Below, in pieces: positions 1 to 30,946 of a stretch of DNA of 64,000 nt; the stretch's first letter is position 1; each line of letters starts with the position of its first letter. The position numbers and the translations under genes were made by a program. This DNA is from a virus. The DNA lies in the IMG/VR virus record IMGVR_UViG_3300036770_008702, positions 1-64,000 of that record. One strand, written 5' to 3'. The notes under the pieces are model-generated. The model was given only the letters and a program-made list of their open reading frames with translations, ran no database searches and was not told the DNA's origin.

Positions 1-243
1 CGGACCGCAGGTGCCGGACTGCTGCGCTATGCTTCGGTGCGCGATCCGGCCCATGGCGCGAACTGGGCGGTGCTCGACTGCGCCGCGATCTCCACGCGCA
101 TGCCGACGCGCCAGCAGACCTGGCATTACATGATCCGTCCGACCCAGATCGAAGCCGTTTGCGAAATGCCGCAGATGCGCCTGGTGTTCGCTTACGCGGA
201 CTGGGGATCGGTCGATCCTCGCATTCCACCCCAGCTGGCCTGA
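1..243 (+). CDS. RES-domain protein (RES/Xre-type toxin), C-terminal part only
   Basis: Frame open from base 1: RTAGAGLLRYASVRDPAHGANWAVL matches the RES G..Y.SVR...G.N..l motif. Confidence 0.7.
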   Translation, partial: RTAGAGLLRYASVRDPAHGANWAVLDCAAISTRMPTRQQTWHYMIRPTQIEAVCEMPQMRLVFAYADWGSVDPRIPPQLA

Positions 244-281
244 CCGCCACCACGCCCGGGCCCATACCGGACCAATTCAGT

Positions 282-325
282 CCTGTTCACCACCGATCAA
301 CGGTCGTTGGTCGGTGGTGAACAGG
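282..325. terminator. 21-bp inverted repeat between convergent genes
   Basis: CCTGTTCACCACCGATCAACG-gt-CGTTGGTCGGTGGTGAACAGG, one mismatch. Confidence 0.55.
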
Positions 326-433
326 GGCCAAATATCAGACGGAGGGATGTACTGCGTAGGCCGAGGCACGGTGCGGCCGAGTTGAATGTCGGTCGACGTG
401 CTCGGTTCGCCGGCTACGATGTGGAATGCCTCC

Positions 434-655
434 TCAGTAGCGGCCCACTCCAACGCTGATGCCGGGTCGCTGCGCCCTTTCCAGTACGATGGGGGAGAAG
501 GTCTCGCGCTTGGCCGCTTGGCGATTGCCGACCATCTCGAACCAAGTGCACCAGACGGCATCCTCGTTGGTAATGGCTCTTTGGCCGACCTGCTCGACTG
601 TCATCAACGGCCCGCCTGATTTGAGGCGGACAAGGTCACCAGGATTGAACTCCAT
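434..655 (-). CDS. YodC/DUF2158 family small protein
   Basis: FNPGDLVRLKSGGPLMTV...VWCTWF motif. Confidence 0.85.
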   Translation of the reverse strand: MEFNPGDLVRLKSGGPLMTVEQVGQRAITNEDAVWCTWFEMVGNRQAAKRETFSPIVLERAQRPGISVGVGRY

Positions 656-729
656 ATGGCACTCCGGTCAGTTGGCGATCGATCCAATATACGCGTTAGC
701 AGCGAGTCGCCATTGGAGATCCTTTGGCT

Positions 730-2697
730 TCAGAACCAGCTATCTCGCTCTCGGTTGATCCACCGCGGTCGGTAGGGAATGTATGGGGTCTGCGCCTCCT
801 GCCGAGCGGGCTGTGTTGGCTGCGCAGGTGATGCGACAGCGGCCGCAGATGCGGTGGGCGGCAGCGGTGGCACCGACGCCATCCCATCCGCCATCCGATC
901 CCACCGCCCGTCGCCCCAGCCGTCCATCCCCATGGCCGCCGTTGCCGCCCTGGCATAGACGCGACAGTCGAGCGCCTCATTCCGCTCCCGCGTTTTGACC
1001 CACTCCATCTTGCGGAACCCGTTGCGCCCGGCACGGATCACCAATTGCTCAGCGGTCAGCTGCTTGCAGAACTCCTCCCCCGCGGCGTGGCTGGGCAGAT
1101 GCACGTAGCCCGCGGGATAGTCCTCGCCTGATTCCTCCGTCGGCCGGTCCAGCTTCAGCCAGCCATAGGTCTCCCCTTTGAGATAGCTGGACCCGACCGG
1201 CCACACCTTGAGGCCACCTAACCTGGTGCCGTTGCGCCGCACCTCGGTCTTCGATGCCAAGCCCACCGCTTGGCGCAGGGCGTCCTGACCCTTCACGGCG
1301 ATGACACGCGTGGACCCGGCGCGACGCACAAAGGCGTAGACCTCGGCGGTGGTCATGCCATCGCCGCTGTCCACGGCGGTCATCGAGATCCCCAGTTGCT
1401 GGCCGCTATCGTGGCGCCACGTTTCGTTGAGCAAGGCGCGCAGCTCGTCCCAGACAGCGCGATGGAAAGGGTTGCCTGGAATGACCCGATGATCCACCAA
1501 CCAGGACTGCTTGCCATACCCCCAGGCCCAGATCGATGCCTCGACGCGATCGCGCTGAACGTCGACGCCGGCGGTCAGGAACAGCCCGCCCTGCGGCACC
1601 GTGCCTGGCGCCCACGTCTCCCGGCGATCATATAGACGCTGCCAGTCGGGCGCCTCGCCCGGCTCCTGCCACGTCTCGCCCAGCACTGTGTTCTTGAATG
1701 TCTTGATGGCGCGACCATCGCCCTGGGCCGCCTCCCAGTCCCGCGCGATCTGCTCCCAGGAGAGCCAGCCGATGGGTGAATAGAGCGCGGAGATGTGGAA
1801 GCCCACCGCATGGGGATCGGAGGCTTCCGCCGTCGCCCGCCAGGTGCCGGCGGCGAGCATGGCGGTCTTGTGGTGCTCCAGGATGGGGTGGTCGCAACCT
1901 TCGCAGTGATAGGCCACCGTATGGGGCGCCCCCCATTCCCACCTGAGCCGATCAAAGCGCAACCACTGCTCATGGCCACACTCCGGACACGGCAGGAAGT
2001 AGCGTCGCTGGTCCGTGGCTTCGAACTCGCGTTCGATGCGCGATGCCCCGGCGATGGTCGGCGTCGAGACGAGGTACACCTTGCGCCGCCAGCCAAAGGT
2101 GCGGGCCCGGGCCTCGGCCAGCGCAATGGGATCACCTTCGCCGTCGACATCGCCAGGATAGGCATCGACCTCGTCGAGGAACAGGAACCGCGCCGTCATC
2201 GAGCGCAAGCCCACTGCCGAGTTGGCCCCGGTCAGCACCAGGATGCCGCCCGGGAACTCCTTCGAGAGCTGGGTGTTGCCGCTGTCGCGGGCCCGGGCCG
2301 GCGCCACCCGCTCGCGCAGTGCCGGCGTCTCCTCCAGCAGGGGATCGATCCTCTGGCGGCTAAAGCGCTTGGCCAGTTCCACGGTCGGCTGCACCGCCAG
2401 CACCGGAGCCGGCACGTGGTGCATGATGTAGCCGAGCCAGCAGTTGCCGCCTTCCGTGGCGCCGACCTGAGCCCCCTTCATGAACACGACCCGGCGGGCA
2501 GGATGCACGGCCGACAGCGTGTCCATGATCTCGCGCAGATAGGGCGTGCGGCTGGTGCGCCAGGGTCCAGGCTCCGACGAGGCGCGGGTGCCGAGCACGC
2601 GGTGCTGGTCGGCCCATTGGCTGACGGTGAGTTGGGGCGGCGGGCGCAGCATGGCGCCGGCACGGCGATGGACATGGCTAGCGGTCCGCCCCGCCAT
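730..2697 (-). CDS. Terminase large subunit, lambda GpA family (copy A)
   Basis: KGAQVGAT Walker A, FLDEVD Walker B, VSTPT, LTAGVDVQ, RNEALDC. Confidence 0.95.
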   Translation of the reverse strand: MAGRTASHVHRRAGAMLRPPPQLTVSQWADQHRVLGTRASSEPGPWRTSRTPYLREIMDTLSAVHPARRVVFMKGAQVGATEGGNCWLGYIMHHVPAPVLAVQPTVELAKRFSRQRIDPLLEETPALRERVAPARARDSGNTQLSKEFPGGILVLTGANSAVGLRSMTARFLFLDEVDAYPGDVDGEGDPIALAEARARTFGWRRKVYLVSTPTIAGASRIEREFEATDQRRYFLPCPECGHEQWLRFDRLRWEWGAPHTVAYHCEGCDHPILEHHKTAMLAAGTWRATAEASDPHAVGFHISALYSPIGWLSWEQIARDWEAAQGDGRAIKTFKNTVLGETWQEPGEAPDWQRLYDRRETWAPGTVPQGGLFLTAGVDVQRDRVEASIWAWGYGKQSWLVDHRVIPGNPFHRAVWDELRALLNETWRHDSGQQLGISMTAVDSGDGMTTAEVYAFVRRAGSTRVIAVKGQDALRQAVGLASKTEVRRNGTRLGGLKVWPVGSSYLKGETYGWLKLDRPTEESGEDYPAGYVHLPSHAAGEEFCKQLTAEQLVIRAGRNGFRKMEWVKTRERNEALDCRVYARAATAAMGMDGWGDGRWDRMADGMASVPPLPPTASAAAVASPAQPTQPARQEAQTPYIPYRPRWINRERDSWF

Positions 2698-3211
2698 GTC
2701 CGAGGTCTGGAGGATCGAAGCGATCGGCCGCCTCCATCAGCATAGTGGTGACGTGCTGCTGCAGGACGGACTGCATCAGGTGGGGATCGACACCGAGTTC
2801 GGCGGCGATCTGGCCGGAGACGCGGCTGGGCCAGTTCAGCAGGGCATCGCGCATGGCGCCGGCGATCTCATCGATCGCGGCGTTGGCGGCCGCGGTGTCC
2901 AGTAGCCGGCCCTTCTCCTCGTCGAGCGCCAGACGGCGGGCCTCGACCTTCAGCGCCAGTTCGGCAACCTTGAGCCGCGCGAAGGGGGTGGCGTCAGACG
3001 ACATTGCCGCCCCTGATCCGGCAGCGCCCTGCGCCAACGGGGAGCGGGCCGGATCGGCGGTCTCGACCATGCGGCGGCGGGTCTTCTCGACATCCCACTG
3101 GCCGTCGGGCTCACGGACGATCCGGCCCTTGGCCTCGGCCTTGCGCAGGGCGGTCTCGGTGACGCCGATGCGGCGTGCGGCTTCACGGGTGGAGGGGGTC
3201 AGCTCTGGCAT
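2678..3211 (-). CDS. Terminase small subunit-like protein (copy A)
   Basis: N-terminal HTH (STREAARRIGVTETALRKA), RDALLNWP motif, overlaps terL start; start may be 3226. Confidence 0.8.
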   Translation of the reverse strand: MPELTPSTREAARRIGVTETALRKAEAKGRIVREPDGQWDVEKTRRRMVETADPARSPLAQGAAGSGAAMSSDATPFARLKVAELALKVEARRLALDEEKGRLLDTAAANAAIDEIAGAMRDALLNWPSRVSGQIAAELGVDPHLMQSVLQQHVTTMLMEAADRFDPPDLGHGGADR

Positions 3212-3282
3212 TCCCGTCCCCATCATCCGCGTCAGGCGGCAAGACCACGCTCATCATGTGATCGAGCGTGGGCGGTGATCGC

Positions 3283-3381
3283 AATCATTCTGCGCTCAAT
3301 CTGACTTGGCTATGCCGCGCCCCAGCGCGAAGTGTCCATCACGCGCAGGGGACCAGCACCCGCCAGACAGGAGCAGCACAG
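3283..3381 (+). promoter_or_regulatory. Conserved divergent promoter/leader between terS and the hypothetical gene
   Basis: Nearly identical to 63493-63590; AGGAG RBS before ATG 3382. Confidence 0.45.
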
Positions 3382-3750
3382 ATGGCCAACACCAGCATCC
3401 CGCAGACAGAAAACCGCGAACACGGCTTCTTCGGGACCATTTCCCACCATGCCGACCCCGAGCGCGCCTGGGACATTGCCCTGGCCTTCATCGCCGGGAT
3501 CACTGGCTGCAGCCCTGACGCCACGCGCGCCTTCCTCGATAGCCGCCACGGCCGGCACTTCGCCGACGAGGTCAGCAACCACCTGGTGGCGGGCCAGGGA
3601 CTGGCCAGCGCGATAAACGCCGCCACGACCACCTGGATGGGCTGGCGGATCAGCGCCCGCACCGCCCACGAAACCGGCATCCCGCGCGGGCTCCCCTACC
3701 TGACCGGCTACGTCCTGCACGTCGAGATCGAGACCGACACCACCGAGTGA
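3382..3750 (+). CDS. Conserved phage hypothetical protein (GFFGT...FLDSRHGRHFAD)
   Basis: RBS AGGAG; near-identical copy at 63591-63959. Confidence 0.85.
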   Translation: MANTSIPQTENREHGFFGTISHHADPERAWDIALAFIAGITGCSPDATRAFLDSRHGRHFADEVSNHLVAGQGLASAINAATTTWMGWRISARTAHETGIPRGLPYLTGYVLHVEIETDTTE

Positions 3751-3850
3751 CGCAGCACCCTCCGCCGCCGCCCCGCCCGGGTTCCAACCGGCGGGGCTCC
3801 AAGCAGTAGCAGGCGCCCGATGGTCGGGAGCCGCCACCCGGAGCACGCAG

Positions 3851-4651
3851 ATGAGCCCCTCCCCCGCCGCCACCATCGTCCTGACCCGCGCCGCAGAGCG
3901 CGCGGACCGCCGCCTCGAATTCCACCGCAAGCTGCCGACCGGTGGCCGCCACAAGATGATCGACGCCCTGCTGCGCGAGGGCCTGATCGCCGAGACCCAG
4001 GGCGACTACCGCCTCGGCGACGGCGCCCTGCTGATCGAGGACTCCGCCACCGGCCTGATGCTGACCACGCTGGCCCTGACCGACGCCGGCTTCCGCGCCC
4101 TCAACATGGACCCGCCGGGCCACGAGGCCGACGCCGAAACTTCCGCCACGGACTCGCCCACGGCGCCCGACACGGCGGCGGTGCAAGCGGAGGCCCTGGC
4201 GGTCGCCGACGCCCTGGAAGCCGCCCAGGGCGCGCCCGTGCCCACGCCGCGCGCCAGCCTGCGCGACGCTGCCGCGACGGTGCTGGCCGCCTGGATGGAT
4301 GATGCCAACCGCGAGACCGACATCATCGCCGCGCTCGAAGCTCCGATGGATGCCCTGCGCGCCGCCCTGGCCACCAAGCCGGGCCGCCCGGCCCGCGAGC
4401 CCGGCGCACCGCGCAAGCCGCGCGAGGGCACCAAGCAGGAGGCAGTGCTCACCATGCTCCGCCGCGCCGAGGGGGCGACGGTGGCGCAGATTGCCGAGGC
4501 GACGGGTTGGGCCAGCCACACCGTGCGCGGCTTCCTGGCGGGCCTGAAGAAGAAGGGCATCCAGGTCACCGCGCTGGAGCGCGTCCGCGTAGTCGGAACT
4601 GGCAAGGACGGCGCGAAGGGGTCTTACACGGTCTACCAAGTCGGTACCTGA
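3851..4651 (+). CDS. DUF3489 domain protein
   Basis: REGTKQEAVLTMLRRAEGATVAQIAEATGWASHTVRGFL. Confidence 0.9.
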   Translation: MSPSPAATIVLTRAAERADRRLEFHRKLPTGGRHKMIDALLREGLIAETQGDYRLGDGALLIEDSATGLMLTTLALTDAGFRALNMDPPGHEADAETSATDSPTAPDTAAVQAEALAVADALEAAQGAPVPTPRASLRDAAATVLAAWMDDANRETDIIAALEAPMDALRAALATKPGRPAREPGAPRKPREGTKQEAVLTMLRRAEGATVAQIAEATGWASHTVRGFLAGLKKKGIQVTALERVRVVGTGKDGAKGSYTVYQVGT

Positions 4652-4780
4652 CTCAACTGGTGTCGCTATATGCCATCGCTCCTCCCGCTTTGGGGCGATG
4701 GCACAGGCGGGATCGATTTGGTTTCAAGGCACGTAGTCCGAAGGTCGAAATTGAAACGCACCGCCAAGAAGTGCATAATC

Positions 4781-5038
4781 TCAATTGCCGATTCGCTTGG
4801 TCGCGTTTGCGCCAACAATGAGATCGAAAATATCGCCTGCAGCTGCGAATGACGCGGCCTTGGCGAGAATCTCAAAATGGTTTGTTCCGTTGTGGTGCTG
4901 CGCCTTGATGATGAAGTAGCCCTCGCCGCCACCAAGGTTGTCGTCTTCAATGTGCTCATCGTAGGTCTGGCGATCGATCGGTGACACGTAGAGCACCGCT
5001 CCACCCCCGATTTCTGCCCTAAGGACCATGTCTTCCAT
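4781..5038 (-). CDS. Hypothetical protein, 85 aa
   Basis: Lower-GC ORF with protein-like composition. Confidence 0.55.
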   Translation of the reverse strand: MEDMVLRAEIGGGAVLYVSPIDRQTYDEHIEDDNLGGGEGYFIIKAQHHNGTNHFEILAKAASFAAAGDIFDLIVGANATKRIGN

Positions 5039-5783
5039 GAGCGATACCCCCCACTTCGGATTCTATAAGCATCCCAGGTTCTCGGCAAACCACGTGGCTG
5101 AATACCTTTGCACGCTAGATGCAGGTCAGCGAGAGGCGGTCATTCGTAAGGCAAAATTCCCGCGGAAGAGCGCTGTGGTAGCCTATCAGCAGGTCACACC
5201 AGTATTTCGCAGATTTATGACGGGAAACACTAGCGATCTAAGCTTTTTCGACGAGCCCATTCAACGACTGGAGGCGAAGGCCCGACGCGAGGTGGGATAC
5301 CCTCGCGACGAGGCGCTGCGTTGCATTGCGGCAATCGAGGCATTCAAGATTGCTTTTGCGAAAGTGGATCTTGGGAATGCTGAGTTTGTGCCCGGTCCCC
5401 GTGATGTTACCTTCAAGGTCGAAGGCGTCTCGATCAATGTGCGCTTAGACCCTCCAATAATTGAGCGTACCGCTGACGGGAGCAACTTCTCGGGCGGATG
5501 CGTAATGCTCCTTTCGAGCTCCCCAGAGGCGCGAAGGAATATAGAAAGCCGGCGTAAAAATGTGGCTGCTATAGCTCACTGGGCACTTGAGAAGATTGAT
5601 TCCAACCAGGAGCCGGCTGCAAAGCTTTGCCTTTCGTTTGATGCCTTTGGAGGCAAGATCATAAGTGCACCTCAAGCGGTTGAGCGGCTTCGAAAGCGCG
5701 TTGCAGCCGCTTGTCGTGAAGCAGGCGACAGCTGGCATCGTGTTGAACCTCCGGCCGGGTATGACGGTCCCGCTTGGCGATAG
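5028..5783 (+). CDS. Hypothetical protein, ~250 aa
   Basis: Long ORF in a lower-GC insert; likely start 5037. Confidence 0.8.
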   Translation: MSSMSDTPHFGFYKHPRFSANHVAEYLCTLDAGQREAVIRKAKFPRKSAVVAYQQVTPVFRRFMTGNTSDLSFFDEPIQRLEAKARREVGYPRDEALRCIAAIEAFKIAFAKVDLGNAEFVPGPRDVTFKVEGVSINVRLDPPIIERTADGSNFSGGCVMLLSSSPEARRNIESRRKNVAAIAHWALEKIDSNQEPAAKLCLSFDAFGGKIISAPQAVERLRKRVAAACREAGDSWHRVEPPAGYDGPAWR

Positions 5784-5787
5784 AGAG

Positions 5788-6999
5788 TTAGGCAGACCGA
5801 TCGCCGTTTTGGGACCGCACCGGCGTCTGGCCCGCTGCCGCCTCCCAACGCCGCACGATCACGTCGACATAGCCAGGGTCGATCTCAAGCAGCACTGCCT
5901 GCCGTCCCGTCCGTTCGGCTGCGATCATGGTCGTGCCGGACCCGCCGAACGGATCCAGCACCGTGCCCTGCTGTTTGCTGCTGTTGCGGATGGCGCGCTC
6001 CACCAGCGCCACCGGCTTCATCGTCGGATGCAGGTCGTTGCGCGCCGGCTTGTCGAAATGCCAGACGTTCCCCTGGTCGCGCGCGCCGCACCAGTAGTGC
6101 TGGCCACCGGCCTTCCAGCCGTAGAGCATCGCCTCGAACTGCTGGTGGTAGTCGGCACGTCCGAGCGCGAAGGTGTTCTTGGCCCAGATGATGGTGCTGG
6201 ACCACTTGCCGCCCGCCTCTTGCCAGGCCCGATGCAGGGTCGGCCATTCCGACGATGACATGCAGACGTAGCATGCGCCGATGGTCAGCTGCAGAAGGTT
6301 GGTCAGCGCAGGGGACAGGAAGTCGAGAAAGCCGCTGCCGAGGGCATCATTTGCAATCGTCATCTTTGCTGCCGTGCCTCCTTGATAGCCGACGTTGTAG
6401 GGCGGGTCGGTGAACGCCATGTCGGCAAACCGTCCCGGCCCGAGCGCGCGCTGAACGTCCACCAGCTTCGTGGCGTCGCCGCACAGCACCCGGTGCTGGC
6501 CGCAAATCCACAGGTCCCCCGGTCGGGTTACGGGCACGGAAGGCAGCGGCGGCACCTCGTCCAGCGATGCATCGCCATCACCGTGGATGGTGGCGAGCAA
6601 GTCGTCGATCTCGCGGCTGGAGAAGCCCATAACGTCCAGGTCGACCACGCCCTCGTCGCGGACCCGTGCCAGTTCCGCGGCGAGCAGCGCCTCGTCCCAG
6701 CCTGAGTTGAGCGCGATCTGGTTGTCGGCCAGCCGCAACGCGCGGGCCTGTGCCTCGGACAGATGCGCGAGCCGGATCGCTGGCACCGCCGTCAGACCCA
6801 GACGCTTAGCTGCCAGTACGCGGCCATGCCCCGCCACCAGCACGCCGGCCGCATCGACCAGCACCGGGTTCACGAAGCCGAACTCAGCAATGGAGGCCGC
6901 GATCTGCCCAACCTGCGCGTCCGAGTGGGTGCGGGCGTTGGCAGCGTAGGGGATCAGCGACTCCACCGGCATCGCCACCACGGCGAGATCAGCCTGCAT
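5788..6999 (-). CDS. ParB-like domain + N6/N4 DNA methyltransferase (DPPY)
   Basis: NARTH/AGHGR/LADN ParB motifs; TDPPYN, HPTMKP, VLDPFGGSGTT. Confidence 0.93.
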   Translation of the reverse strand: MQADLAVVAMPVESLIPYAANARTHSDAQVGQIAASIAEFGFVNPVLVDAAGVLVAGHGRVLAAKRLGLTAVPAIRLAHLSEAQARALRLADNQIALNSGWDEALLAAELARVRDEGVVDLDVMGFSSREIDDLLATIHGDGDASLDEVPPLPSVPVTRPGDLWICGQHRVLCGDATKLVDVQRALGPGRFADMAFTDPPYNVGYQGGTAAKMTIANDALGSGFLDFLSPALTNLLQLTIGACYVCMSSSEWPTLHRAWQEAGGKWSSTIIWAKNTFALGRADYHQQFEAMLYGWKAGGQHYWCGARDQGNVWHFDKPARNDLHPTMKPVALVERAIRNSSKQQGTVLDPFGGSGTTMIAAERTGRQAVLLEIDPGYVDVIVRRWEAAAGQTPVRSQNGDRSA

Positions 7000-8470
7000 C
7001 GGCGGCCTCCATCACCTTGGTGCGTTCCGCGGCCACCGTGTCATAGTCCCGCCCGTCGCTGTCGAGCGTCACCGCCAGGTCGGGATGGTTCTGCCGCCAG
7101 CGCGCGATCGCCAGGTCAACATATGCTGGCGCCAGCTCGATCGCCCGCACCCGTCGTTCGGTCCTCTGTCCCGCCAGCAGCGTCGTGCCCGACCCGGCAA
7201 AGGGCTCGAACACCAGGTCGCGCTCGGCGGAATACGTCTCCATCAGGAACGCGGGGAGTTTCACCGGGAACACCGCCGGGTGCTCGGTCTCGATGCCGCG
7301 CTCCTTGTGCCGGCTGATCCGCACCACGTTGTCGGGGATCCGGAAATCCTGGATTGGCCGGCCCAGGTGCGAGTTGCCGCTCATGCTGCCGTCGGGACGG
7401 CGCAGCCCGGACATCAGCAGCGGGTCGCCGGCCCACTTGCAGGGCACGACCTTGTTGGCCTGGCGCGGCTGGCGGTTGAAGTGGAAGACGAACTCGAAGC
7501 TCGGCGCCAACCGCCCATTCCAGTCGCCGGGCAGGCCGGGACCCTGGTCCCACACATACCAGCCGAACCGGCGCCATCCGGTCGTTCGCATCCATTCGAC
7601 CCAGCCCTGCCAGTAGGGATGCCATTCGCTCTCCCGGTGCGTCATGCCGAGGTTCACCAGCACCTGCCCGTCCTCGGCCAGCGCATCACCTGCGTGCTGG
7701 AAGACACCCTGCATGAGGTTGTCCCAGTCGCCGATGCCGCCGGTCGTGTAGTTGCGCTGGCTGCCATACGGCGGCGAGGTGAACAGCAGCGCCGCGCGCT
7801 CACCGGACATGACACGAGCGACGGCCGCCCCATCGGTGCTGTCACCGCAGAGCAGCCGGTGCTCGCCAAGGAGCCAAAGATCGCCGGGGCGAGTGACGGC
7901 GGCGCGCGGCGGGTCGGCCGCCGCATCTGCGGGGTCTTCGTCCCCGTCATCGCCATCCGCGCCCGCAGGTTCGGCGTGACCATCGACGTTGGCGCCGTCC
8001 TGCTCGTCCCGCGCATCGCCATCGGTGACGGCCTCGTCCGCGGCGGCCAGGATCGCGCCGATCTCCTCCTGGGAGAACCCGATGGCCAGCAGGTCAATCT
8101 CGCCCGCCTGCTGCAGCCCGGCCAGTGCGTCGCGCAGCAGCGCCTGGTCCCAGGTCGCGTTTTCGGCGATGCGGTTGTCGGCGAGCCGAAGTGCCTCTTT
8201 CTGCGCCGGCGACAGGTGCTTCAGCGCGATCACCGGCACCTTGGTGACGCCCAGCGCCAGTGCTGCCTCGAGTCGTCCGTGTCCCGCGATCAACACGCTG
8301 TCCTCGTCCACCAGCAGCGGGTTGGTGAACCCAAACGCCAGCATGCTGGCCTTGATCTGCTCCAGCTGCTCGGCGGAATGGATCCGCGCATTGCCGGCAT
8401 GGGGACGCAGGTCGGCCGCCGGGCGCAGCACGATCTGCGCGGCCATCCAAGGGAGGGTCATCGGCACCAT
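6989..8470 (-). CDS. ParB-like domain + DNA methyltransferase (SPPY, likely N4-C)
   Basis: ParB N-terminus; FTSPPY, HPAVFP, FEPFAGSGTT. Confidence 0.93.
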   Translation of the reverse strand: MVPMTLPWMAAQIVLRPAADLRPHAGNARIHSAEQLEQIKASMLAFGFTNPLLVDEDSVLIAGHGRLEAALALGVTKVPVIALKHLSPAQKEALRLADNRIAENATWDQALLRDALAGLQQAGEIDLLAIGFSQEEIGAILAAADEAVTDGDARDEQDGANVDGHAEPAGADGDDGDEDPADAAADPPRAAVTRPGDLWLLGEHRLLCGDSTDGAAVARVMSGERAALLFTSPPYGSQRNYTTGGIGDWDNLMQGVFQHAGDALAEDGQVLVNLGMTHRESEWHPYWQGWVEWMRTTGWRRFGWYVWDQGPGLPGDWNGRLAPSFEFVFHFNRQPRQANKVVPCKWAGDPLLMSGLRRPDGSMSGNSHLGRPIQDFRIPDNVVRISRHKERGIETEHPAVFPVKLPAFLMETYSAERDLVFEPFAGSGTTLLAGQRTERRVRAIELAPAYVDLAIARWRQNHPDLAVTLDSDGRDYDTVAAERTKVMEAADAG

Positions 8471-8486
8471 CCGGCATGTGAGGGGA

Positions 8487-8664
8487 GTGCGAACCAGGGT
8501 CGCAGCGCTGCGGCGTGCGAACCTCAGTGGCGAGGGTAGGCAATTTTTGGCGGAATACCGCGGTCAGCCGCCCGTAGCTGCGAACCGCGAACCAGATTTC
8601 AGAACTGACAGTAGCGACCTACCGCGCATCGTCCCCCCGCATGGGATTGTCCCAGGAAGGAACC
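8487..8664 (-). other. Putative cos packaging site (cosQ-cosN-like plus repeated binding sites)
   Basis: Minus strand GGTTCCT-N20-GGGGGACGATGC-GCG resembles lambda GGGTCCT...GGGCGGCGACCT-CGCG; four GGTTCGC repeats follow. Confidence 0.55.
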
Positions 8665-8813
8665 ATGGCTTCGAAACGAGTGGCTCAGGAGCCGCAGTGG
8701 CTAGGGGGAGACGGCGGAGGCACTTATCGAGCCACCCTCAATGTAGCCCAAGCAAATCTCGTTGCGCAACACGACATTTCTACGCAGGTTTTCGCACGTC
8801 TTCGCGTGTTGGG

Positions 8814-9239
8814 TTAAATCCGCTTTAGCGGCTTTGGCTTGCCTGACCACGGGCATTTGAGAAGAGCGCCAAGTGGTGCACCCCGGACGCTGCCCATCCA
8901 AGTCGACCACCAAAGGAGGGAGTGGTGTGCCCGCTCCATCATCGAGGCATGGTTCCACTCACCTGTCAGCACGATGCCTATGCATCCCGTCTCGGCAAAA
9001 GCGGCTCGCTCATGGGAGCGTGTCCTCATGCTCTTGTCGGTGGTGACAAGCGCCGCGCGGCTGTGTCCGCCTTCTACAACTGCCTGGATCAACAGAACGT
9101 CTTTGGTTCCATTCTGCACAATGTCCAGCGCATGATGAACCTCGAGAGACTCCTGAGAGCCCAGTGCATCGGCCTCCACGATCAATTTAATCGCGTGCGC
9201 GACCACGCGAGGCGTGTTTTCGTCAAATACGACTTTCAC
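8814..9239 (-). CDS. PIN-like toxin (VapC45/PIN_10-like)
   Basis: MKVVFDEN...D....LVTTDKSMR..HER pattern; coupled to upstream gene. Confidence 0.8.
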   Translation of the reverse strand: MKVVFDENTPRVVAHAIKLIVEADALGSQESLEVHHALDIVQNGTKDVLLIQAVVEGGHSRAALVTTDKSMRTRSHERAAFAETGCIGIVLTGEWNHASMMERAHHSLLWWSTWMGSVRGAPLGALLKCPWSGKPKPLKRI

Positions 9240-9955
9240 GCCGCCAGGGGCATGTGGGAGTCGACACCAAGAGTAAACCTCACGGCTTGGTCTACACCCG
9301 CTTCATCAGTCCCGAAGAATGCAGCGACCTTTGCAGAGTTGCCCTTCTCGCCACGCCAAGCATCAAAAAGAGCGTCAGCCGGAGCACCACTAGTCAATTC
9401 GATCGGTCTACCAAAAGAGCGGTGCGGATCAACGACAATTCTGGGGTACCGTGTATTTGGAGTCCATTGTCGGGCAACATCACCTTCGTAAGAGACGCTG
9501 GCAATGAAAGTATCGACTAGCACATCATAGATGGCGAAGTTATCGCCAACGAGATCGTACAGCGCCAAATCTCCAGTTTCTTCCTGCGCCTCAGCAAAGA
9601 TTCGCCGCCCGTCCGTGTGGATGCGCCGAACAGCGAAGGGGTGTTCGTTCTTAAGAACTCGCCGCGCGGTCTCAGCTGCGGTGCGAATAGCCTTCCAGCT
9701 AGGCGATCGACCTTGCCGTTCGGCCGCTCGGACGATCCGACCAAGAAAATCCACCTCTAGCAGGTCCAGAAAGCCCAGAGCGAGCTCGCCCTCCCTTAAC
9801 TCATGCTGACGCTTGAGGACCGGCGGCGCAGCAGCTTTTCCTTTGCGCTGTCCATAGCCCAGCAGCCAACCCCGGATCTGCCGTGAGGGCACTCCGGTCA
9901 GCCGGGCGGCGTCTGAGACGCTGTAGATGCCAAGCGCAGCTGAAATGGCGTTCAC
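9236..9955 (-). CDS. HTH + DUF433-like antitoxin (VapB45-like)
   Basis: GIYSVSDAARLTGV HTH, FLDLLE, IVVDPHRSFGRPI; GTG start with GAGGAGG RBS. Confidence 0.8.
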   Translation of the reverse strand: MNAISAALGIYSVSDAARLTGVPSRQIRGWLLGYGQRKGKAAAPPVLKRQHELREGELALGFLDLLEVDFLGRIVRAAERQGRSPSWKAIRTAAETARRVLKNEHPFAVRRIHTDGRRIFAEAQEETGDLALYDLVGDNFAIYDVLVDTFIASVSYEGDVARQWTPNTRYPRIVVDPHRSFGRPIELTSGAPADALFDAWRGEKGNSAKVAAFFGTDEAGVDQAVRFTLGVDSHMPLAA

Positions 9956-9977
9956 CAGTACCCTCCTCGTCCGTACG

Positions 9978-10568: not shown

Positions 10569-10797
10569 TGCTCTGCCCTCCGCGGCGCGGACCCCACCGC
10601 CGCGTCGCTTCGTTGGTGACCGCCTGGCGCAGCCAGGGGTCTGTGATGTCAGCGACCGCGAGTACCGCGACGCCCTGCTGCAGCCAAGCTCGCCGGCGCA
10701 GTTCGTGGAGGGACAGGACTGGGAATGGTCCTGCGGCGGAGGCAAGGCTCAGGCAGGAACGGGGTGCCCGTGGTGCCCCGGGAAGGTTGATGCTCAT
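10558..10797 (-). CDS. Phage hypothetical protein, 79 aa
   Basis: Overlaps next gene; LRRRAWLQQGVAVL..I.DPWLRQ motif. Confidence 0.6.
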   Translation of the reverse strand: MSINLPGAPRAPRSCLSLASAAGPFPVLSLHELRRRAWLQQGVAVLAVADITDPWLRQAVTNEATRRWGPRRGGQSNGD

Positions 10798-10930
10798 GAC
10801 AGCCGTCGATCTTTCTGCTGTAGGGGAATAGGTTTGTCCTCTGCGGCCATGTGGCCATCACAATGGCTGGGTTGGCCCGACCAAGCCCTGCCACCGGGGG
10901 GAGCGCGTGTGTCGTTTAGACTCACACGCA

Positions 10931-11158: not shown

Positions 11159-11182
11159 CCCGTTGCCCTGCGAGGACGGCCC

Positions 11183-18950: not shown

Positions 18951-19062
18951 CGGCGCTTGCACACTGCCGGTCTCTTGGCAGCAATGTCTCGCATCTTCGA
19001 CGCTCGAACGTTGGATCCCCATCACCGACATCACATGCTGCGCGCTGCGCTGAGACCGTTGT

Positions 19063-22000: not shown

Positions 22001-22734
22001 TCAAGGGCCTCAAGCAGATATCGCATCGGCGGGTCGTCAGCCGAGTACCCGACAAGAACTAGGGTATGAGTTCTGAAGACATCATAGAGGTAACGCGACG
22101 CCCATCCGCTGCGAAGATAAGCGTCACCGAACTCGGCGCTCGTCAATACAAGGTCAGTGTCGTCTAGATCGAGTGTTGTGTCCGCAAGGCGACCATGCAG
22201 ATGCAGAACGCCATTGAACCGTCCATCCTTAGGCTGAGGCATTGCTTGACATGCATGAGAAGCGATTGAAGTCGTCTTGGCGAATTTCCATGCGCGTTCA
22301 AACAGCGTGTCGAAATTGGTGGTGAGTATCCGATTACGGTGTTCGGCGTCCCTTGATAGCTCAAGAAGCATGAGGTGGTCAGTCAGATCCGCATCATTTT
22401 TGGGCGCCAAACTGTTTCGTACTGCGTCTCGAATACGCCCGCGCCAGGACTGAGAGCTTCGGCTACCTTGGCCAACGAGACGACGTTCCAGCGCGCGCAG
22501 TAGTCTGTCGTATTGCCCGCTAAGGCTACCTCCATCGCGCATAATCTCGTTCTCAGCCGGGTGTACCTCCCAGCGCTCCCCGAGGTGCTGGTAGATCCGT
22601 TCAACTAGACCACGGAAAAGCGGCAGCCCGGCATTAAGTGAAACGCCTGCGCCACACACGAACAGCACTTCTCCCCGTTCCTGAGCTCGAACCAGTTCGT
22701 CCGGGAGGTTGGGGCCATCATCAACTAGGCGCAT
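19063..22734 (-). CDS. Dsr1-like defence-associated sirtuin (SIR2 NADase)
   Basis: GPNLPDELVRAQERGEVLFVCGAGVS, TTNFD, HLHG, VGYSADDPP; ~1220 aa. Confidence 0.85.
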   Translation of the reverse strand: MRLVDDGPNLPDELVRAQERGEVLFVCGAGVSLNAGLPLFRGLVERIYQHLGERWEVHPAENEIMRDGGSLSGQYDRLLRALERRLVGQGSRSSQSWRGRIRDAVRNSLAPKNDADLTDHLMLLELSRDAEHRNRILTTNFDTLFERAWKFAKTTSIASHACQAMPQPKDGRFNGVLHLHGRLADTTLDLDDTDLVLTSAEFGDAYLRSGWASRYLYDVFRTHTLVLVGYSADDPPMRYLLEALEADRERFPDLKPVYAFAAGDAAKGLHEEALWRAKGIEPVLYQKDAQGSHLPLYRTIREWARYAEDPTSWRKERLTAFLSSDPASVSEFDLGEIVALLRHGDADRLLGVISPSAQWLPKLRERGVFADGRITASSWIVSRLGDPEMVRNCASEPVSEQTWETVEWALGRKEHLPPAEYRTAWRWIIWARRNQQPSWRHRSILLLNKSTAVEDEFGFRSAVAELFRPMLHVRRPVKWPYTEQREADTVTARSLIEVDFEVSHPPRMQEVIDVLPEDAELVEGLLRTLCRSLDAALDQARDAGFVEPYDRSSGDVPSIAEHDQNRHRGGFLPLVRLIAEVWTRLVALAPTDARSHAQQWSSSKYALFQRLHLHALVNHVAYTADEAADGLLDLKDTEFWSLSLRRETMRLMAERWNQFSTTAHVNLVLRLVDGPPSAMYREEAIADPDEWQAVRDRATFKRLARIKGAGGILDGNGREALEKIKQRHPDWIAGAGDRDDFSYWMTSSWGLRGDPSVLSGVSEPELVSVAGRLQREHPFESSDIWRALCASDPARALNGLEASAAEHHWDPERWKEFFWEATGADVDFLSQRIAANLMRIPEEVLLSFLPAATSWLQRMREKLDATAHASSAFIQIWDRLASLAYRAPPEDLNVVTSDDDVGNAALNEPGGQLAGTLFDAAANLRPAKGQGFSADFKQRFETAIAAPGRPGLLARAHFLRFLPWMFHIDHDWSSEHLIPLLTKTGSETRALWQVRLSGDIARDPMLFNMLKDPLLAQCRDPLVAIPSAEGLVSSIILPRLWKQQDDAGGWQIAPAEVKIALEEAPKELLHAASRQLWMWMSEEEGDPRERSKRWTWVFYPFFYSCWPQGVACRDQTTSRNLVQMAMAAEQSLGDALKCIIPILVPFDIWSIEINILNMGNSEAIIQNYSRSFIQLLNIIIDPDTVRIPSDLGEVLAQCASADSSLLTDAAYRRLHAISRRQSA

Positions 22735-23006
22735 TGCCTTACCTTGCATCAGTGGCCGGGCGGGGATCATTGTCGCCAGCGACTGTGGATTACGACACTG
22801 GCATGGTGAAGTCGACATTGCTGATGACTTTCTAACATGCAGTGCCGCGCGGAACGCGTCCGAACCGCCAAGCCGCCTCGCAACCTCATGCACATGGATG
22901 AGCGCAGCCTTGTGCCAACACGTCGGTTCGGCAACCATGCTCGCGTCCAGAGATGGCCCGCAGAAGCTGAGCCTCTCCCCAGATTGCTACAAGGAATCCG
23001 CCTTTT

Positions 23007-24809
<1,803 letters not shown>

Positions 24810-24891
24810 GTATACCCATCCGTCACAGGTGCCACGCTCAATTCGCTTTGCTTCGCGCGAGGAGAACTATCGTCCTCGAAGGGGCGCGGTG

Positions 24892-26061
24892 ATGTCTGTC
24901 TACCCGATCAGACCTCTTGGCGAGATCGTCGAGAACCTCGACGCGCAACGCCGGCCGGTCAAGAGTTCAGAGCGAAGGCCAGGCCCATATCCCTATTTCG
25001 GCGCGCAAGGCATTGTGGACCATGTAGATGGTTTCCTTTTCGATGGGGAGTTCGTCCTGGTTGCCGAAGACGGTGAAAATCTGCGATCGCGCAACCAGCC
25101 CATCGCGTTGATGGCGCGTGGCCGCTTCTGGGTGAACAACCACGCTCATATCCTGCGCGGCACTTGGTCTGCGAATACCCGCTTTTTGTTCTATGCCCTC
25201 AACCACGCTGACATTTCAGGCTATGTAACAGGCTCGACCATACCGAAGCTTTCCCAGGGCAACCTGAACCGCATACTGGTTCCCTGTCCGTCAATCGACG
25301 AGCAGCGCGCAATCGTCGCTATCCTCGGCGCACTCGACGACAAGATCGACCTGAACCGCCGGATGAACCAGACGCTGGAGGCGATGGCCCGCGCCATCTT
25401 CCAGGACTGGTTCGTCACCTTCGGCCCCACCCGCGCCAAGCAGGAAGGCCGCCCCCCCTACCTCGCCCCCGACCTCTGGTCCCTCTTCCCCAACCGCCTC
25501 GACGACGACGGCAAGCCGGCGGGGTGGCAGGTCCGAAAGGTGGTGGATGTTCTCGATCTCGCCTATGGCAAGGCGTTACCATCCCCGGATCGCACACCCG
25601 GCCCTATTCCTGTCTACGGATCAGGCGGCATTACAGGACACCACGATACGGCATTGGTTGATGGACCTGGTGTGATCGTTGGCCGCAAAGGCACAGTTGG
25701 CAGTTTGTATTGGGAAGACCATCCATTTTATCCGATTGATACGGTGTTCTATGTTGTCCCCCGAACCTCGATGGCATTCTGTTTCTACTTACTGCGAACA
25801 CTCGGGCTCGAAGGCATGAACACCGATGCGGCCGTCCCTGGCCTCAACAGGAACAACGTGTATCGGCTGCCGGTTCCGTGGGCGCCGGAGGAGGTGCGGC
25901 AGGTATTTGACTCGGTCGTGATGCCGCTCCGCGCAAAGATTTCAGCGAATGACGCAGAGGCCCGCACCCTCGCCGCCACCCGCGACCTCCTGTTGCCAAA
26001 ACTCATGTCCGGCGAACTCCGCGTGAAGGAGGCCGAGCGTCTGGCGGAGGCGGCCCTGTGA
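24892..26061 (+). CDS. hsdS: Type I R-M specificity subunit
   Basis: Two TRDs joined by EQRAIVAILGALDDKIDLN; ends RDLLLPKLMSGE. Confidence 0.93.
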   Translation: MSVYPIRPLGEIVENLDAQRRPVKSSERRPGPYPYFGAQGIVDHVDGFLFDGEFVLVAEDGENLRSRNQPIALMARGRFWVNNHAHILRGTWSANTRFLFYALNHADISGYVTGSTIPKLSQGNLNRILVPCPSIDEQRAIVAILGALDDKIDLNRRMNQTLEAMARAIFQDWFVTFGPTRAKQEGRPPYLAPDLWSLFPNRLDDDGKPAGWQVRKVVDVLDLAYGKALPSPDRTPGPIPVYGSGGITGHHDTALVDGPGVIVGRKGTVGSLYWEDHPFYPIDTVFYVVPRTSMAFCFYLLRTLGLEGMNTDAAVPGLNRNNVYRLPVPWAPEEVRQVFDSVVMPLRAKISANDAEARTLAATRDLLLPKLMSGELRVKEAERLAEAAL

Positions 26062-27086
26062 GCTACTCACCGAAGGGCGAACTCATTCTTTACCGCACCG
26101 AGGACGGCCGAACCACGATCCAGCTTCGCGCGGTCGATGGCACCGCCTGGTTGACACAGGCGGACATCGCCGCCCTGTTCGACACCACCAAGCAGAATGT
26201 CAGCCTGCACCTTAAAAACATCTTTTCCGACAAAGAGTTGGACCCTACCGCAGTTGTCAAGGAATCCTTGACAACTGCCGCCGACGGCAAGGCCTACCCG
26301 ACCCAGCACTACAACCTCGACGCCATCCTCGCGGTTGGCTACCGCGTGCGCTCGCCCCGCGGCAGCCAGTTTCGCCGCTGGGCGACCACCGTGCTGCGCG
26401 AATACCTGGTGAAGGGCTTCTCCCTCAACGACGAGCGACTCAAGGACCCCGCCGCCACGGACTACTTCGACGAGCTGCTGGCGCGCATCCGCGATATCCG
26501 CGCCTCGGAGAAGCGTTTCTACCAGAAGGTCCGCGACCTCTTCAAAGCCACCAGCGTGGACTACGACGGCACCGACGACGCCGCCAAAACGTTCTTCGCC
26601 ACCATCCAGAACAAGCTCGTCTTCGCCGTCACCGGCCGGACCGCGGCGGAGCTGATCGTGGAGCGGGCCGATCCGACCAAACCCAACATGGCGCTCACCA
26701 GTTGGAAAGGGCCGACGGTCCGCAAAGGCGATGTCACCATCTCGAAGAACTATCTCAACGCCGAGGAGATCGAATCCCTCAACCGCCTGACCACGATGTT
26801 TCTGGACTTCGCCGACGAGCGCGCCCGCCGTCGGCGTGAAACCCGCATGGCCGACTGGCTGGCCCAGACCGATCGCTTCCTCGCATTCAACGAACGTGAC
26901 GTCCTGCGCAACGCCGGCAGCATCTCGCATGATCGGATGGAAGCAATTGCCCATGGCCGCTTCGAAACCTTCGACGCCAACCGCCGCGCCTCCGAACTGG
27001 CCGCCGCGGAAGAGGAAGCCGCGGCCGAGATGAACCAACTGGAGCAGGAGGCGCAGCGACTTCGGCGCCCGCGCAAGCCAAAGTGA
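26058..27086 (+). CDS. RhuM family protein
   Basis: [23 protein letters not shown]; [15 protein letters not shown]. Confidence 0.92.
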
Positions 27087-30000
27087 CCGGTATCGCGGAA
27101 AGTCATGTGGAGGAAGCGGCGCTGCATTGGCTCGCCGAGCTTGGCTACGCCGTCGCCGCTGGCCCCGACATCGGCCCGGACGGCGCGCGGCCCGAGCGAG
27201 CTACCCATGGCGACACTCTCCTCCTCGGTCGCCTGCGCGCCGCCATCGCCCGGCTGAACCCCGGACTTGCGCCGGAGGTCCGGGCGGCCGTGCTGGCGAA
27301 GGTCACCCAAACGGAAACCCCGTCGCTGATCGAAGAGAACCGCCGCCTCCATCGCTATCTGGTGGAAGGCGTGCCGGTGGAGGTGCGCCGGCCGGACGGC
27401 AGCATCGGGGGCGAACTCGCCCGCCTGATCGACCTCACCGACGTCGCGGCCAACGACTGGCTGGCGGTGAACCAGTTCACGGTCATCGAGAACAAGGCCA
27501 ACCGTCGGCCCGATGTGGTGGTACTGGTCAACGGTTTGCCGCTCGGCGTGATCGAGTTGAAGAACCCCGGCGAACAGAACGCCACCCTCGACGGTGCCTT
27601 CAACCAGTTGCAGACCTACAAGGCCCAGATCACCTCCCTTTTCCGCGCCAACGTCGCCCTGGTGATCTCCGACGGCATCGCCGCCCGCATCGGCTCGCTC
27701 ACCGCGGACCGAGAACGCTTCATGCCCTGGCGCACCATCACCGGCGACGACCTGGCGCCCAAGAGCGCGCCGGAACTGGAGACCCTGCTGAAGGGCGTCT
27801 TCGACCGGCAACGCCTGCTGGACCTGATCCGCGACTTCCTCGTCTTCGGCGGCTCCGGCAGTGACACGGTGAAGATCCTGGCCGGCTACCACCAGTTCCA
27901 CGCCGTGCGCCACGCCGTCGCCCGCACCCTCGCCGCCACCGCCCCGGGGGGAGACCGCAAGGTGGGGGTCATCTGGCACACCCAGGGCTCCGGCAAGAGC
28001 CTGCTGATGGCGTTCTACGCCGGCCAGGTCATCAAGCACCCAGAGATGCAAAACCCCACGGTCGTGGTGCTGACCGACCGCAACGACCTCGACGAGCAGC
28101 TCTTCGGCACCTTCTGCCTGTGCCAGGACCTGCTGCGCCAGTCCCCGCAGCAGGCTGAGGACCGCGACCACCTGCGCAAGCTGCTCGATCGCCCCTCCGG
28201 TGGCGTGATCTTCACCACCCTGCAGAAATTCTCGCCCGAGAGCGGCTCCACCGACTACCCGGTGCTGACCGACCGCCGCAACGTGGTGGTGATCGCCGAT
28301 GAGGCGCACCGCAGCCAATACGGCTTCCGCGCGAAGGTCGCCGCCAGGACGGGCGAGATTTCCTACGGCTTCGCCAAGTACCTCCGCGACGGGCTGCCCA
28401 ACGCCTCCTTCATAGGCTTCACCGGCACGCCGATCGAGAAGGACGACGTGAACACGCCGGCGGTGTTCGGCAACTACATCGACATCTACGACATCGCCCG
28501 CGCCGTGGAGGACGGGGCGACGGTTCCCATATACTACGAGAGCCGCCTGGCGAGGATCGAACTGGACGAGGACGAGAAGCCGAAGCTCGATGCCGAGATC
28601 GAGGACCTGACCGAGGACGAAGCCGAGACCGAGCAAGAACGCCTGAAGCGCAAATGGGCCAGCGTCGAGGCCCTGGTCGGCGCCGAGAAGCGCCTCGCCC
28701 TGGTGGCCGAGGACTTGGTACGCCATTTCGAGGCCCGCATCGCGGCGCTGGACGGCAAGGCGATGGTGGTGTGCATGAGCCGCCGCATCTGCGTCGCCCT
28801 CTACGACGAAATCATCCGGCTCCGGCCCGCATGGCACAGCGACGATGACGATGCGGGCATGGTGAAGGTCGTGATGACCGGAGCGGCTTCCGACCCGCCC
28901 TCCTGGCAACCGCATATTGGCAAGCGGCCGAAAGCCCGCCGTGAGGCATTGGCCAAGCGAGCCAAGAAGGCCTCCGATCCGCTTAAGCTCGTCATCGTCC
29001 GCGACATGTGGCTGACGGGTTTCGACGCCCCGAGCATGCATACGATGTATGTGGACAAGCCGATGAAGGGCCACGGCCTGATGCAGGCCATCGCCCGCGT
29101 GAACCGGGTGTTCAAGGACAAGCCGGCCGGCCTGGTGGTGGACTACATCGGCGTTGCGCAGAACCTGAAGAGCGCCCTGGGGCAGTATTCCGGCGGCGAC
29201 CGCGACCAGACGGGCATCGATGAGGCCGAAGCGATCCGTGTCCTGGAGGAGCACTACGAGATCGTCCACGCCATGTTCCGCCCCGACATGGCCGGCGGCT
29301 TTGATTACCGGCCCGCCTTGGAGCCTGGGGCGAGCGCACCCGTCCGCCTGGGCATCATGGCCGGCGCCATCGACTGGGTGCTGACCATGCAGCAGAATGA
29401 CGCTGCCAAGGAGATCACCGAGGAGGGCAAGAAACGTGCCCATCGTCGGTATGCCGACGCGGTGGCGGCCCTCTCCAAGGCATTCGCGCTCGCCTCCGCC
29501 AGTGACGAAGCGCGGGCCATCCGCGAGGAGGTGGGGTTCTTCCAGGCGATCCGGGTCGCCCTGGCCAAGAGCGCGCCTGGCGACGGCAAGAAGAGCACCG
29601 CGGAACGCGAGTTCGCCATCCAGCAGCTTGTCAGCCGCGCCGTGGTGTCCACCGAGATCGTCGACATCATGAAGGCCGCGGGCCTGGACAGCCCGGACAT
29701 CTCCATTCTCTCCGACGAATTCCTGGCTGAAGTGCGCGAGATGGAGAAGCGGAACCTCGCGATCGAGGCACTGAAAAAGCTGATTGCCGGCACCGTGCGT
29801 GCCCAGGCCCAGCGCAACGTGACCCAGGCCAAGGGCTTCACCGAACGCCTGGAAGCCGCGATCGCCCGCTACCACACCAACGCCATCACCACGGCCCAGG
29901 TGCTCGAAGAGCTCATCCAGATCGCCAAGGACATCCGCGCCGCCCGTGCCCGCGGTGAAGAAACCGGACTGTCGGACGAGGAGGTCGCCTTCTACGACGC

Positions 30001-30253
30001 CTTGGCCGAGAACGAGAGCGCCCGCCAGATGATGGGCGAGCCCGCTCTTCGCCTGATCGCCCATGAGCTTGTCACGATCATCAGGGGCAATATGACCGTC
30101 GACTGGATGCACCGCGACTCAGCGCGCGCCAACATCCGGCGCCTCGTGAAGCGCCTGCTGCGCAAGTACGGCTATCCTCCCGACCTCCAAGACGCTGCGG
30201 TGCAGAATGTCCTGCAACAGGCCGAGGCGCTGTCGGCAGAGTGGGCGGCATGA
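27083..30253 (+). CDS. hsdR: Type I R-M restriction subunit
   Basis: RPD..ELK nuclease, [28 protein letters not shown]. Confidence 0.96.
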
Positions 30254-30286
30254 TGTCGGCGTTCCGCGCGCACTGGAAAGAGTGGG

Positions 30287-30583
30287 CTTTTCGCTCCCAG
30301 TCACCAATGCCCACCCGATCGAGTTTCGAACTTACGGTTTGGAGTCGCATCATTAAAGCGCGCGACTTCAATAGGATACAACTCGGGCCCAAAACCCCCA
30401 CAGCCCCAAGTCGCGGAGAAAATTGGCCCTTCGGAGAGAGATTCGGGCGTTCGTTCCGCTCGCGGAGCCCCGAGTCCACCCGGCAACCCCACGGAAAACT
30501 TGGGGTTTTCCGGGCCGTCTCACCAGCGGAGAGCGGTTCACCCCTAGGGTGGTGGCGTAGGATAGGGAACTGGGAGCGAAAAG
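30287..30583. repeat. 15-bp perfect inverted repeat pair; candidate element end/att region
   Basis: CTTTTCGCTCCCAGT (30287-30301) and ACTGGGAGCGAAAAG (30569-30583). Confidence 0.6.
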
Positions 30584-30946
30584 TCTCTGTGCGCCGGCGG
30601 TCGCCGCCCAACGACGGTGAGCGGCTTCCTGGCGGGTATATTCAGCGAGCCTGCGTCGTAGCCTTTGCCAAGGCATTCTGAACACCGCTATCGTCTCGAT
30701 CGTAGGTTTTGCTCCATCAGCGCCCGCAAACCCTGGGGCCAATCGCTGCTGAATTGTTGTTGCTGTTAAGCGGCGAATCTCTTGTGTTGGGCGCATTGAA
30801 GTGGCGTGCCTGCGAGAACAATATCGTTTGCCAGCTCCGAACGTTTGCCGCTCAGCCGACCCGAAGGTGAAGGCCCGACAGTCAGCTCCGCCGGAATCTT
30901 GTCTGGGGCCCGGGGAGCGGCAGGTCACAAGAAGGGACGGAAGATG

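Follow-up and report, generated by a model that had tools for sequence, protein, structure and literature searches.

Gene content of the element at the left edge of the record

The window analyzed here, the whole stretch of 64,000 bases that was examined, comprises positions 1 to 64,000 of the IMG/VR virus record IMGVR_UViG_3300036770_008702, which is 83,951 bases long in full and whose closest relatives are prophages of the Acetobacteraceae/Roseomonadaceae. The record bears two related elements: A, the left element (positions ~330 to 17,280), and B, a related complete prophage at the right. An earlier note on this DNA proposed that A is a headless satellite that carries its own terminase and borrows heads and tails from helpers resembling B. 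Proteins were identified by use of Pfam, PHROGs, and PADLOC. The genes of A for ParB-methyltransferases, TerS, TerL, DUF2924, and a serine recombinase are distributed over both strands of ~17 kb, with the replication genes between them (Table 1), and no frameshift or premature stop interrupts any recognizable gene. Most of the modules named in the note proved to be present. The integrase is a large serine recombinase encoded alongside DUF2924, the primase-helicase gene lies next to an iteron cluster with four copies of TTTGGCAACTTnCC, which is a candidate replication origin, and the genes for both terminase subunits are real, with full-length GpA ATPase and nuclease domains in TerL. A cos-like site had also been claimed, although without coordinates, and an alignment of the region upstream of terS showed no clear site.

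Because the record begins at window base 1, 729 bases are present downstream of A's terL. None of them encodes gpW, a portal, a capsid, or a tail protein; in relatives, the portal lies up to 2.7 kb away. These 729 bases are the entire basis for describing A as lacking head genes. Base 1 splits a gene in midframe, whereas the right end of the record falls exactly on a stop codon, from which we infer that the contig physically ends at base 1 and that an additional 22 kb extends to the right. The TerL of A occurs in the protein collection on a single contig of 106,370 bases.

The left edge was also compared with read data from one subsurface metagenome run (X1, the probable source; 91% of sampled words), at the level of assembled contigs and unitigs. 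A unitig from this run spans window positions 1 to 289, reaches 1,522 nucleotides (nt) leftwards beyond base 1, and stops inside a palindrome. Its depth was 44.5, versus 21 to 24 for the unitigs unique to A; this approximate doubling could reflect a second copy, a second strain, or a co-occurring strain without A. The contigs of the sequencing runs yielded no usable excision junctions for A, and no RNA data set was listed among the runs that contain this DNA. A comparison of bases 1 to 1500 with 401 Acetobacteraceae genomes revealed neither an empty site nor a syntenic flank, the only matches being to terL, the RES gene, and the palindrome.

Cargo genes between terL and gpW in related phages

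As the earlier note had described, terL of A is followed by a gene for a DUF2158 protein, a long hairpin, and a convergent RES toxin gene. The RES gene is cut at its 5′ end by the record start and was recognized by alignment to a longer homolog (L256:8238-8987; PF08808 RES, E 1.8e-27) that has an Xre/MbcA antitoxin gene upstream; the fragment at positions 1 to 243 by itself had no match in Pfam. Approximately 169 RES codons and an Xre antitoxin gene would be expected to the left of base 1. Also as described, terL of B is directly followed by gpW (60724-60957, minus strand; 12 nt past the terL stop) and then by a lambda-family portal gene (59072-60523), with genes for a capsid fusion protein and a tape-measure protein beyond the portal.

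The cargo and the convergent toxin gene after A's terL had been taken as a sign of headlessness, an argument that did not survive comparison with complete relatives. Loci with TerL homologs (240 in total) were gathered from genomes, metagenomes, and IMG/VR, and 212 of them extend at least 2.5 kb downstream of terL. A portal gene is located 0.25 to 2.7 kb after terL in 209/212 of these loci, and in about one-third of the portal-bearing loci the gap between terL and the portal is at least 0.95 kb, which is the gap that A would need. Gaps of at least 0.65 kb contain toxin-antitoxin genes, for MazE (three cases), PrlF (three), PIN proteins (two), and ParD, as well as various host-like cargo; genes for a catalase, MlaA, and a histidine kinase are also present. 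Insertion on the opposite strand occurs as well, with 43 of the 144 open reading frames (ORFs) in the gaps so oriented. RES-Xre pairs themselves occur within the virion modules of other phages, in the tail module of L256 and downstream of terL in L133. The terL-gpW junction is thus a hot spot for cargo, and where a record ends shortly past terL, a toxin gene at that spot is no evidence of a missing head module. A DUF2158 gene followed by a convergent RES gene can be compatible with a complete phage of A's family.

Collinearity of A with complete prophages

Prophage sequences of Falsiroseomonas bella (L001, C12) contain terS, terL, the DUF3489 gene, both methylase genes, the 255-amino-acid (aa) gene, and an A-type primase gene, followed by a portal gene whose product is 82 to 84% identical to that of B. 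Judged from this shared gene content, the arm of A is collinear with complete prophages. The complete prophage C12 combines an A-type terL (79%) and an A-type primase (63%) with a B-type portal (82%). It also encodes homologs of B's 253-, 124-, 561-, 233-, and 308-aa proteins. The 255-aa DUF6456-like protein of A has homologs in B as well as in complete relatives.

The nucleotide homology between A and B is uneven. Identity is 79% over the 5′ two-thirds of terL (residues 1 to ~390), terS, and the DUF3489 gene, 82% over the methylase genes, and 89% over the integration module (92 to 96% at the protein level), and homology stops at position 17252. The TerL genes of A (730-2697) and B (60969-62900) form a mosaic when compared by synonymous (dS) and nonsynonymous (dN) divergence: the first 200 codons have a dS of 0.56 and a dN of 0.03, the remainder has a dS of 1.0 to 1.7, and codons 391 to 600 have a dS of 1.7 and a dN of 0.62. 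A and B are also far closer in terS, in the region adjacent to it, and in the integration module than elsewhere, which points to recent exchange between the two lineages. B's genes for the 253-, 124-, 561-, 233-, 308-, 231-, 240-, 81-, and 749-aa proteins are missing from A. The 561-aa protein is a RadD-like superfamily 2 (SF2) helicase (E 4e-39; L311 9,123-10,808), and the 240-aa protein is ECF-sigma-like, matching SigE in the PDB (E 2.4e-5; L311 13,638-14,360; contig 77,638-78,360). The interval between the primase gene and the DUF2924 gene in A is 1.3 kb and contains no clear genes.

TerL carboxy-terminal tails and portal type

The carboxy terminus of gpA, the large terminase subunit of lambda, binds the portal. 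All TerLs accompanied by a portal 70 to 84% identical to B's (mostly 80 to 84%) terminate in RPRxWLxxRxGWLR, and TerLs whose portals are only 31 to 43% identical to B's have other carboxy-terminal ends. Across A, B, L001 to L240, and P0001 to P0120, the tails fall into discrete types (…GWLR, …RPRWIxRxRDSWF, …GRQSYF, …WIQRR, and …GGGRDSWF), and the four named types other than GWLR are absent from loci with known context. The TerL of A terminates in YIPYRPRWINRERDSWF. The same tail is found in P0002 and P0003, and a related one is found in L011; these four TerLs have the motif R(E/D)RDS(W/Y)F in common and form a supported clade in the tree. Searches of IMG/VR with a degenerate pattern of the A-type tail and with P0003 as the query found no closer TerL relative. 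Among cultured phages, the TerLs of Rhodobacter phage RcBaka and of Ralstonia phage records come nearest (58 to 60% identity).

Under the premise that tail type follows portal type, A's TerL is probably matched to a portal unlike that of B. Because the tail differs from the type that accompanies B-like portals, B is an improbable capsid donor for A, and the proposal that B-like helpers supply A with heads and tails is disfavored. The TerL of A has been maintained: dN/dS between A and L011 is 0.07 at a dS of ~1, which indicates that the protein was functional over most of that divergence.

A separate observation was made on the TerL of P0021 (990 aa; named for Caldovatus sediminis), which is ~340 aa longer than its relatives and has a precomputed match to the LAGLIDADG homing-endonuclease domain PF14528. 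This architecture suggests an intein in the terminase.

Relatives without a portal gene

The 3/212 loci without a portal gene (L011, L044, and L101) all derive from metagenome bins or contigs. L011 is a 4.7-kb contig of a metagenome-assembled genome (MAG). The TerLs of L044 and L101 are of the B type and are sisters on the tree, and the sequences downstream of them are unrelated. In L044 (3691-3800), the first 16 codons of gpW (MDPTVLAWALAQPATS) are retained, after which unrelated sequence and polysaccharide-synthesis genes follow; in L101, the break comes after two ORFs without assigned functions, with copper-resistance genes beyond. Given the unrelated flanks, the differing break points, and the gpW stub, L044 and L101 are best read as independent truncations, with no conserved satellite end between them. 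The gpW stub in L044 and the differing break points also led us to reject the possibility that the two loci represent a mobile headless lineage. No lambda-family portal was found anywhere in the bins that contain L011 (G001) and L044 (G003), both of which are incomplete.

A conserved palindrome and small elements that carry terS only

The near-perfect palindrome next to the RES gene has a predicted stem within a 201-nt fold (positions 240 to 440; z score, −3.9). It is found at 85 to 98% identity in at least 25 of the 401 Acetobacteraceae genomes, compared to 60 to 75% for neighboring genes (L259 to L264 are among its loci); each of the five genomes in which copies were counted has one to three. 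Its role might be that of a terminator or of a site bound by protein, or it might be a mobile palindrome. A host element of the repetitive extragenic palindrome (REP) kind was considered and rejected because of the low copy number and the location in mobile elements.

In four genomes, the palindrome stands directly after a ParB-methylase gene and a small gene assigned to TerS by PHROGs. The surroundings were read in two of the four. The elements in G307 (L265 and L266, C1:2,614,000-2,653,999; palindrome at ~2,633,716-2,633,759) and G296 (L267 and L268, C23:193,000-232,999; palindrome at ~212,630-212,673) are ~12 to 14 kb in size and contain genes for DUF2924, the recombinase, the 126-aa protein, a primase-polymerase (929 to 944 aa), a ParB-methylase, TerS (phrog_309), and DUF3489, together with the palindrome. 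Their serine recombinases are 72 to 74% identical in amino acid sequence to those of A and B. Neither terL nor a B-like virion gene was found within 20 kb, and host genes lie beyond the element in G307. By gene content, these elements look like candidate satellites of the phage-inducible chromosomal island (PICI) type, built on the integration chassis of the phages. They suggest that a satellite reading of A is more plausible than it would otherwise be, without proving it.

Possible origins of A

We tentatively interpret A as a complete prophage that is cut off where the record begins, a reading to which we assign somewhat less than an even chance. The gene identities, the collinearity with complete prophages, the insertion hot spot, and the record boundary form its observed basis. 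In that case, a lambda-like temperate siphophage from B's family would have A as its nonstructural half, comprising serine-recombinase integration, an iteron origin with a primase-helicase, two ParB-methylases, the DUF3489 regulator, and TerS/TerL. Both the record and the contig would stop inside cargo (the DUF2158 gene and a RES-Xre pair) at the terL-gpW insertion spot, so that one would expect gpW, a portal gene of a non-B type, and the capsid and tail genes to the left of base 1. This interpretation is favored by an intact TerL that experiences strong purifying selection and by the resemblance of the other portal-less relatives to truncations, as illustrated by the gpW stub of L044.

Several observations weigh against a cut prophage. 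No virion gene was actually observed in A. In L011, which has the closest TerL (87 to 92% aa identity), the convergent host genes oppD/F and oppC (ABC transporter) lie 147 bp past terL. A is without the nine-gene block that lies between the primase and DUF2924 genes in B, five genes of which are also found in F. bella C12. The RadD-like helicase gene that A lacks is present in 7/10 related provirus records. The palindrome is absent from 3.38 Mb of phage-centered loci and from all of the complete-phage loci, and it is present in the small TerS-only elements with the same recombinase module.

Alternatively, A may be a defective prophage remnant whose virion genes were deleted just after terL and which also lost part of the replication/regulation arm, the rest staying intact because the loss was recent or because the genes are useful to the host. 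Truncation after terL does recur, with unrelated flanks and differing breaks (at gpW codon 16 in L044, and in L101 and L011), nine genes of the B arm are missing from A, and the transposase fragments and the relic of a third module beside A (see below) imply that the region has been repeatedly rearranged. Such decay fits poorly with genes free of frameshifts and stops and with a TerL dN/dS of 0.07, and the loss of the virion genes is itself unobserved; we consider a remnant doubtful, with a probability well below that of a cut prophage.

A slightly less probable origin would make A a self-contained integrative satellite of ~17 kb, with a complete TerS/TerL, its own origin, primase, methylation genes, and serine integrase, and no virion genes, that upon induction cuts its own DNA and packages it into the procapsids of a helper whose portal fits the TerL tail (…RPRWINRERDSWF), a helper other than B. 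The visible sequence past terL amounts to 729 bases at an insertion hot spot, and the informative members of such a lineage are two, A and the 4.7-kb MAG contig L011. The gene set of A reproduces a phage arm gene for gene, unlike the compact layout of satellites; attachment (att) sites and excision junctions for A were not found, and the record contains no helper with a matching portal. A satellite would nonetheless account for the host genes adjoining the sister TerL in L011, for purifying selection on TerL across a dS of ~1, and for the tail motif R(E/D)RDS(W/Y)F common to A, L011, P0002, and P0003. It would also account for a reduced arm without the helicase, sigma factor, and regulator block and for DNA that does not look like phage at both visible ends of A, and it has a parallel in related genomes, where small TerS-only elements share the DUF2924-recombinase module of A.

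Right flank and defense genes

According to the earlier note, about half of A is defense or toxin-antitoxin cargo. The defense genes themselves are real (Dsr1, a type I restriction-modification [R-M] system, and PIN_10), but the proportion does not stand, as the block from 17.3 to 30.6 kb lies outside the arm bounded by the recombinase (Table 1). Between the arm and the defense genes lie a fragment of a transposase gene, the DUF1194 gene, and the relic of a third, related element, about equally distant from A and B, so that the defense block is not assignable to A; nothing links ownership of the Dsr1/R-M genes to A over the relic or the host. The relic beside Dsr1 suggests that related elements have used this region more than once. 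Dsr1 and the type I R-M system would accordingly represent a neighboring defense island at a repeatedly used site rather than cargo of A. A histidine kinase gene follows at 31.3 kb, past the R-M system. In G307, a type I R-M system is also located just past the recombinase module, and such placement may be recurrent.

The recombinase ends of A and B both adjoin transposase fragments, an amino-terminal DDE_Tnp_1_4 fragment in A and a carboxy-terminal IS3-type fragment in B (G000:C1 83,770-83,951; L311 19,770-19,951). The other half of the IS3-type fragment was sought at the left end of B and was not found.

Table 1. Features of element A and its right flank, in window coordinates
Feature	Position	Strand	Basis or remarks
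RES toxin gene, 3′ part, 5′-cut by record start	1-243	+	Aligns to residues 170-248 of the 249-aa protein L256:8238-8987, 66% aa identity
Near-perfect palindrome, 44 bp (20-bp stem, 4-nt loop)	282-325	.	Single copy in window
DUF2158 small protein	434-655	-	PF09926 E 1.5e-10; phrog_3261 E 5.7e-10; 75 nt downstream of terL, same strand
Large terminase TerL, lambda gpA type	730-2697	-	GpA_ATPase 1-247/247, GpA_nuclease 2-290/294; intact, 655 aa, non-B-type tail
Small terminase TerS	2678-3226	-	phrog_57 terminase small subunit, E 2e-28; 77-78% aa identity to B's TerS
DUF3489/helix-turn-helix (HTH) regulator, divergent from terS	3851-4651	+	PF11994 E 2.6e-22; 62-66% aa identity to B's copy
ParB_N-N6/N4 DNA methyltransferase 1	5788-6999	-	PF01555, PF02195
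ParB_N-N6/N4 DNA methyltransferase 2	6989-8470	-	PF01555, PF02195; 86% aa identity to B's
PIN_10 protein	8814-9239	-	Pfam
270-aa HTH protein and 255-aa weakly DUF6456-like protein	within 8814-10745	-	DUF6456 match under the Pfam curated cutoff
Iteron cluster, four copies plus inverted copies (candidate origin)	10955-11161	.	Repeat families D1, D2, D18; just downstream of primase gene
Primase-helicase	11183-13429	-	AAA_25; phrog_239 DNA primase/helicase; 63% aa identity to primase of complete F. bella prophage
DUF2924	14724-15551	+	Pfam
Large serine recombinase, 449 aa	15548-16897	+	Pfam
126-aa accessory protein	ends 17277	+	phrog_14161
DDE transposase amino-terminal fragment (DDE_Tnp_1_4)	17413-17781	.	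Outside A's arm
DUF1194 gene	17786-18451	-	Outside A's arm
Relic of third copy of 126-aa gene (3′ part), 227 bp	18725-18951	.	91% to B's, ~90% to A's
Dsr1	19063-22938	-	Defense-gene identification
Type I R-M hsdM-hsdS-RhuM/PDC-S05-hsdR	23007-30253	+	Defense-gene identification

Comparison with known phages and satellites

The closest known systems are lambda-like temperate siphophages whose terminase is of the gpA/Nu1 type and which have gpW and a lambda-family portal; B and the F. bella prophages are the nearest of them. A has the same terS-terL order, the same GpA domains, and a collinear arm, and of the parts of a complete lambda-like prophage it possesses terS and a gpA-type terL as well as the integration and replication modules. 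It differs in that neither gpW nor a portal gene occurs in the 729 bases past terL, in the type of its TerL tail, and in the missing helicase, sigma factor, and regulator block. For this family, the main value of the analysis is a caution, namely, that a toxin gene found between terL and a record's end does not indicate a missing head module. By-products that may prove more useful are the TerL tail types that track portal type and a 44-bp palindrome conserved in the Acetobacteraceae, which marks TerS-only elements with the recombinase module of the phages.

In SatelliteFinder, PICIs are modeled with integrase, regulator, and primase genes and terS, and the presence of a tail, holin, portal, or connector gene is forbidden; PICIs carry terS but not terL, which is a marker of the capsid-forming PICIs (cfPICIs), whose core comprises terL, the portal, a capsid with protease, a head-tail adaptor, and a connector (PMC10085698). 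A resembles a PICI in its size of ~17 kb and in having each of the listed parts, namely, an integrase (here a serine recombinase), a regulator, a primase-replication module with a predicted origin, and terS, as well as in the lack of a tail or holin gene in the visible part. Within positions 1 to 17,300, terL is present and no gene for a structural or lysis component that the PICI model forbids was seen, in a sequence that starts at base 1. A differs from PICIs in its possession of terL, in the use of a large serine recombinase as the integrase, and in a gene set that mirrors a phage arm. The presence of both terS and terL is shared with cfPICIs, whereas the portal, capsid/protease, head-tail adaptor, and connector genes are not in the visible 17 kb of A; no homolog of B's portal or capsid (E 1e-3) and no corresponding Pfam match was found in positions 1 to 31,000, a result that the unseen left side could alter. 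Should A truly be devoid of virion genes, it would represent a satellite equipped with a complete packaging motor that takes only procapsids and tails from others, and its layout would be intermediate between the PICI and cfPICI models (PMC10085698), a satellite derived from half a phage.

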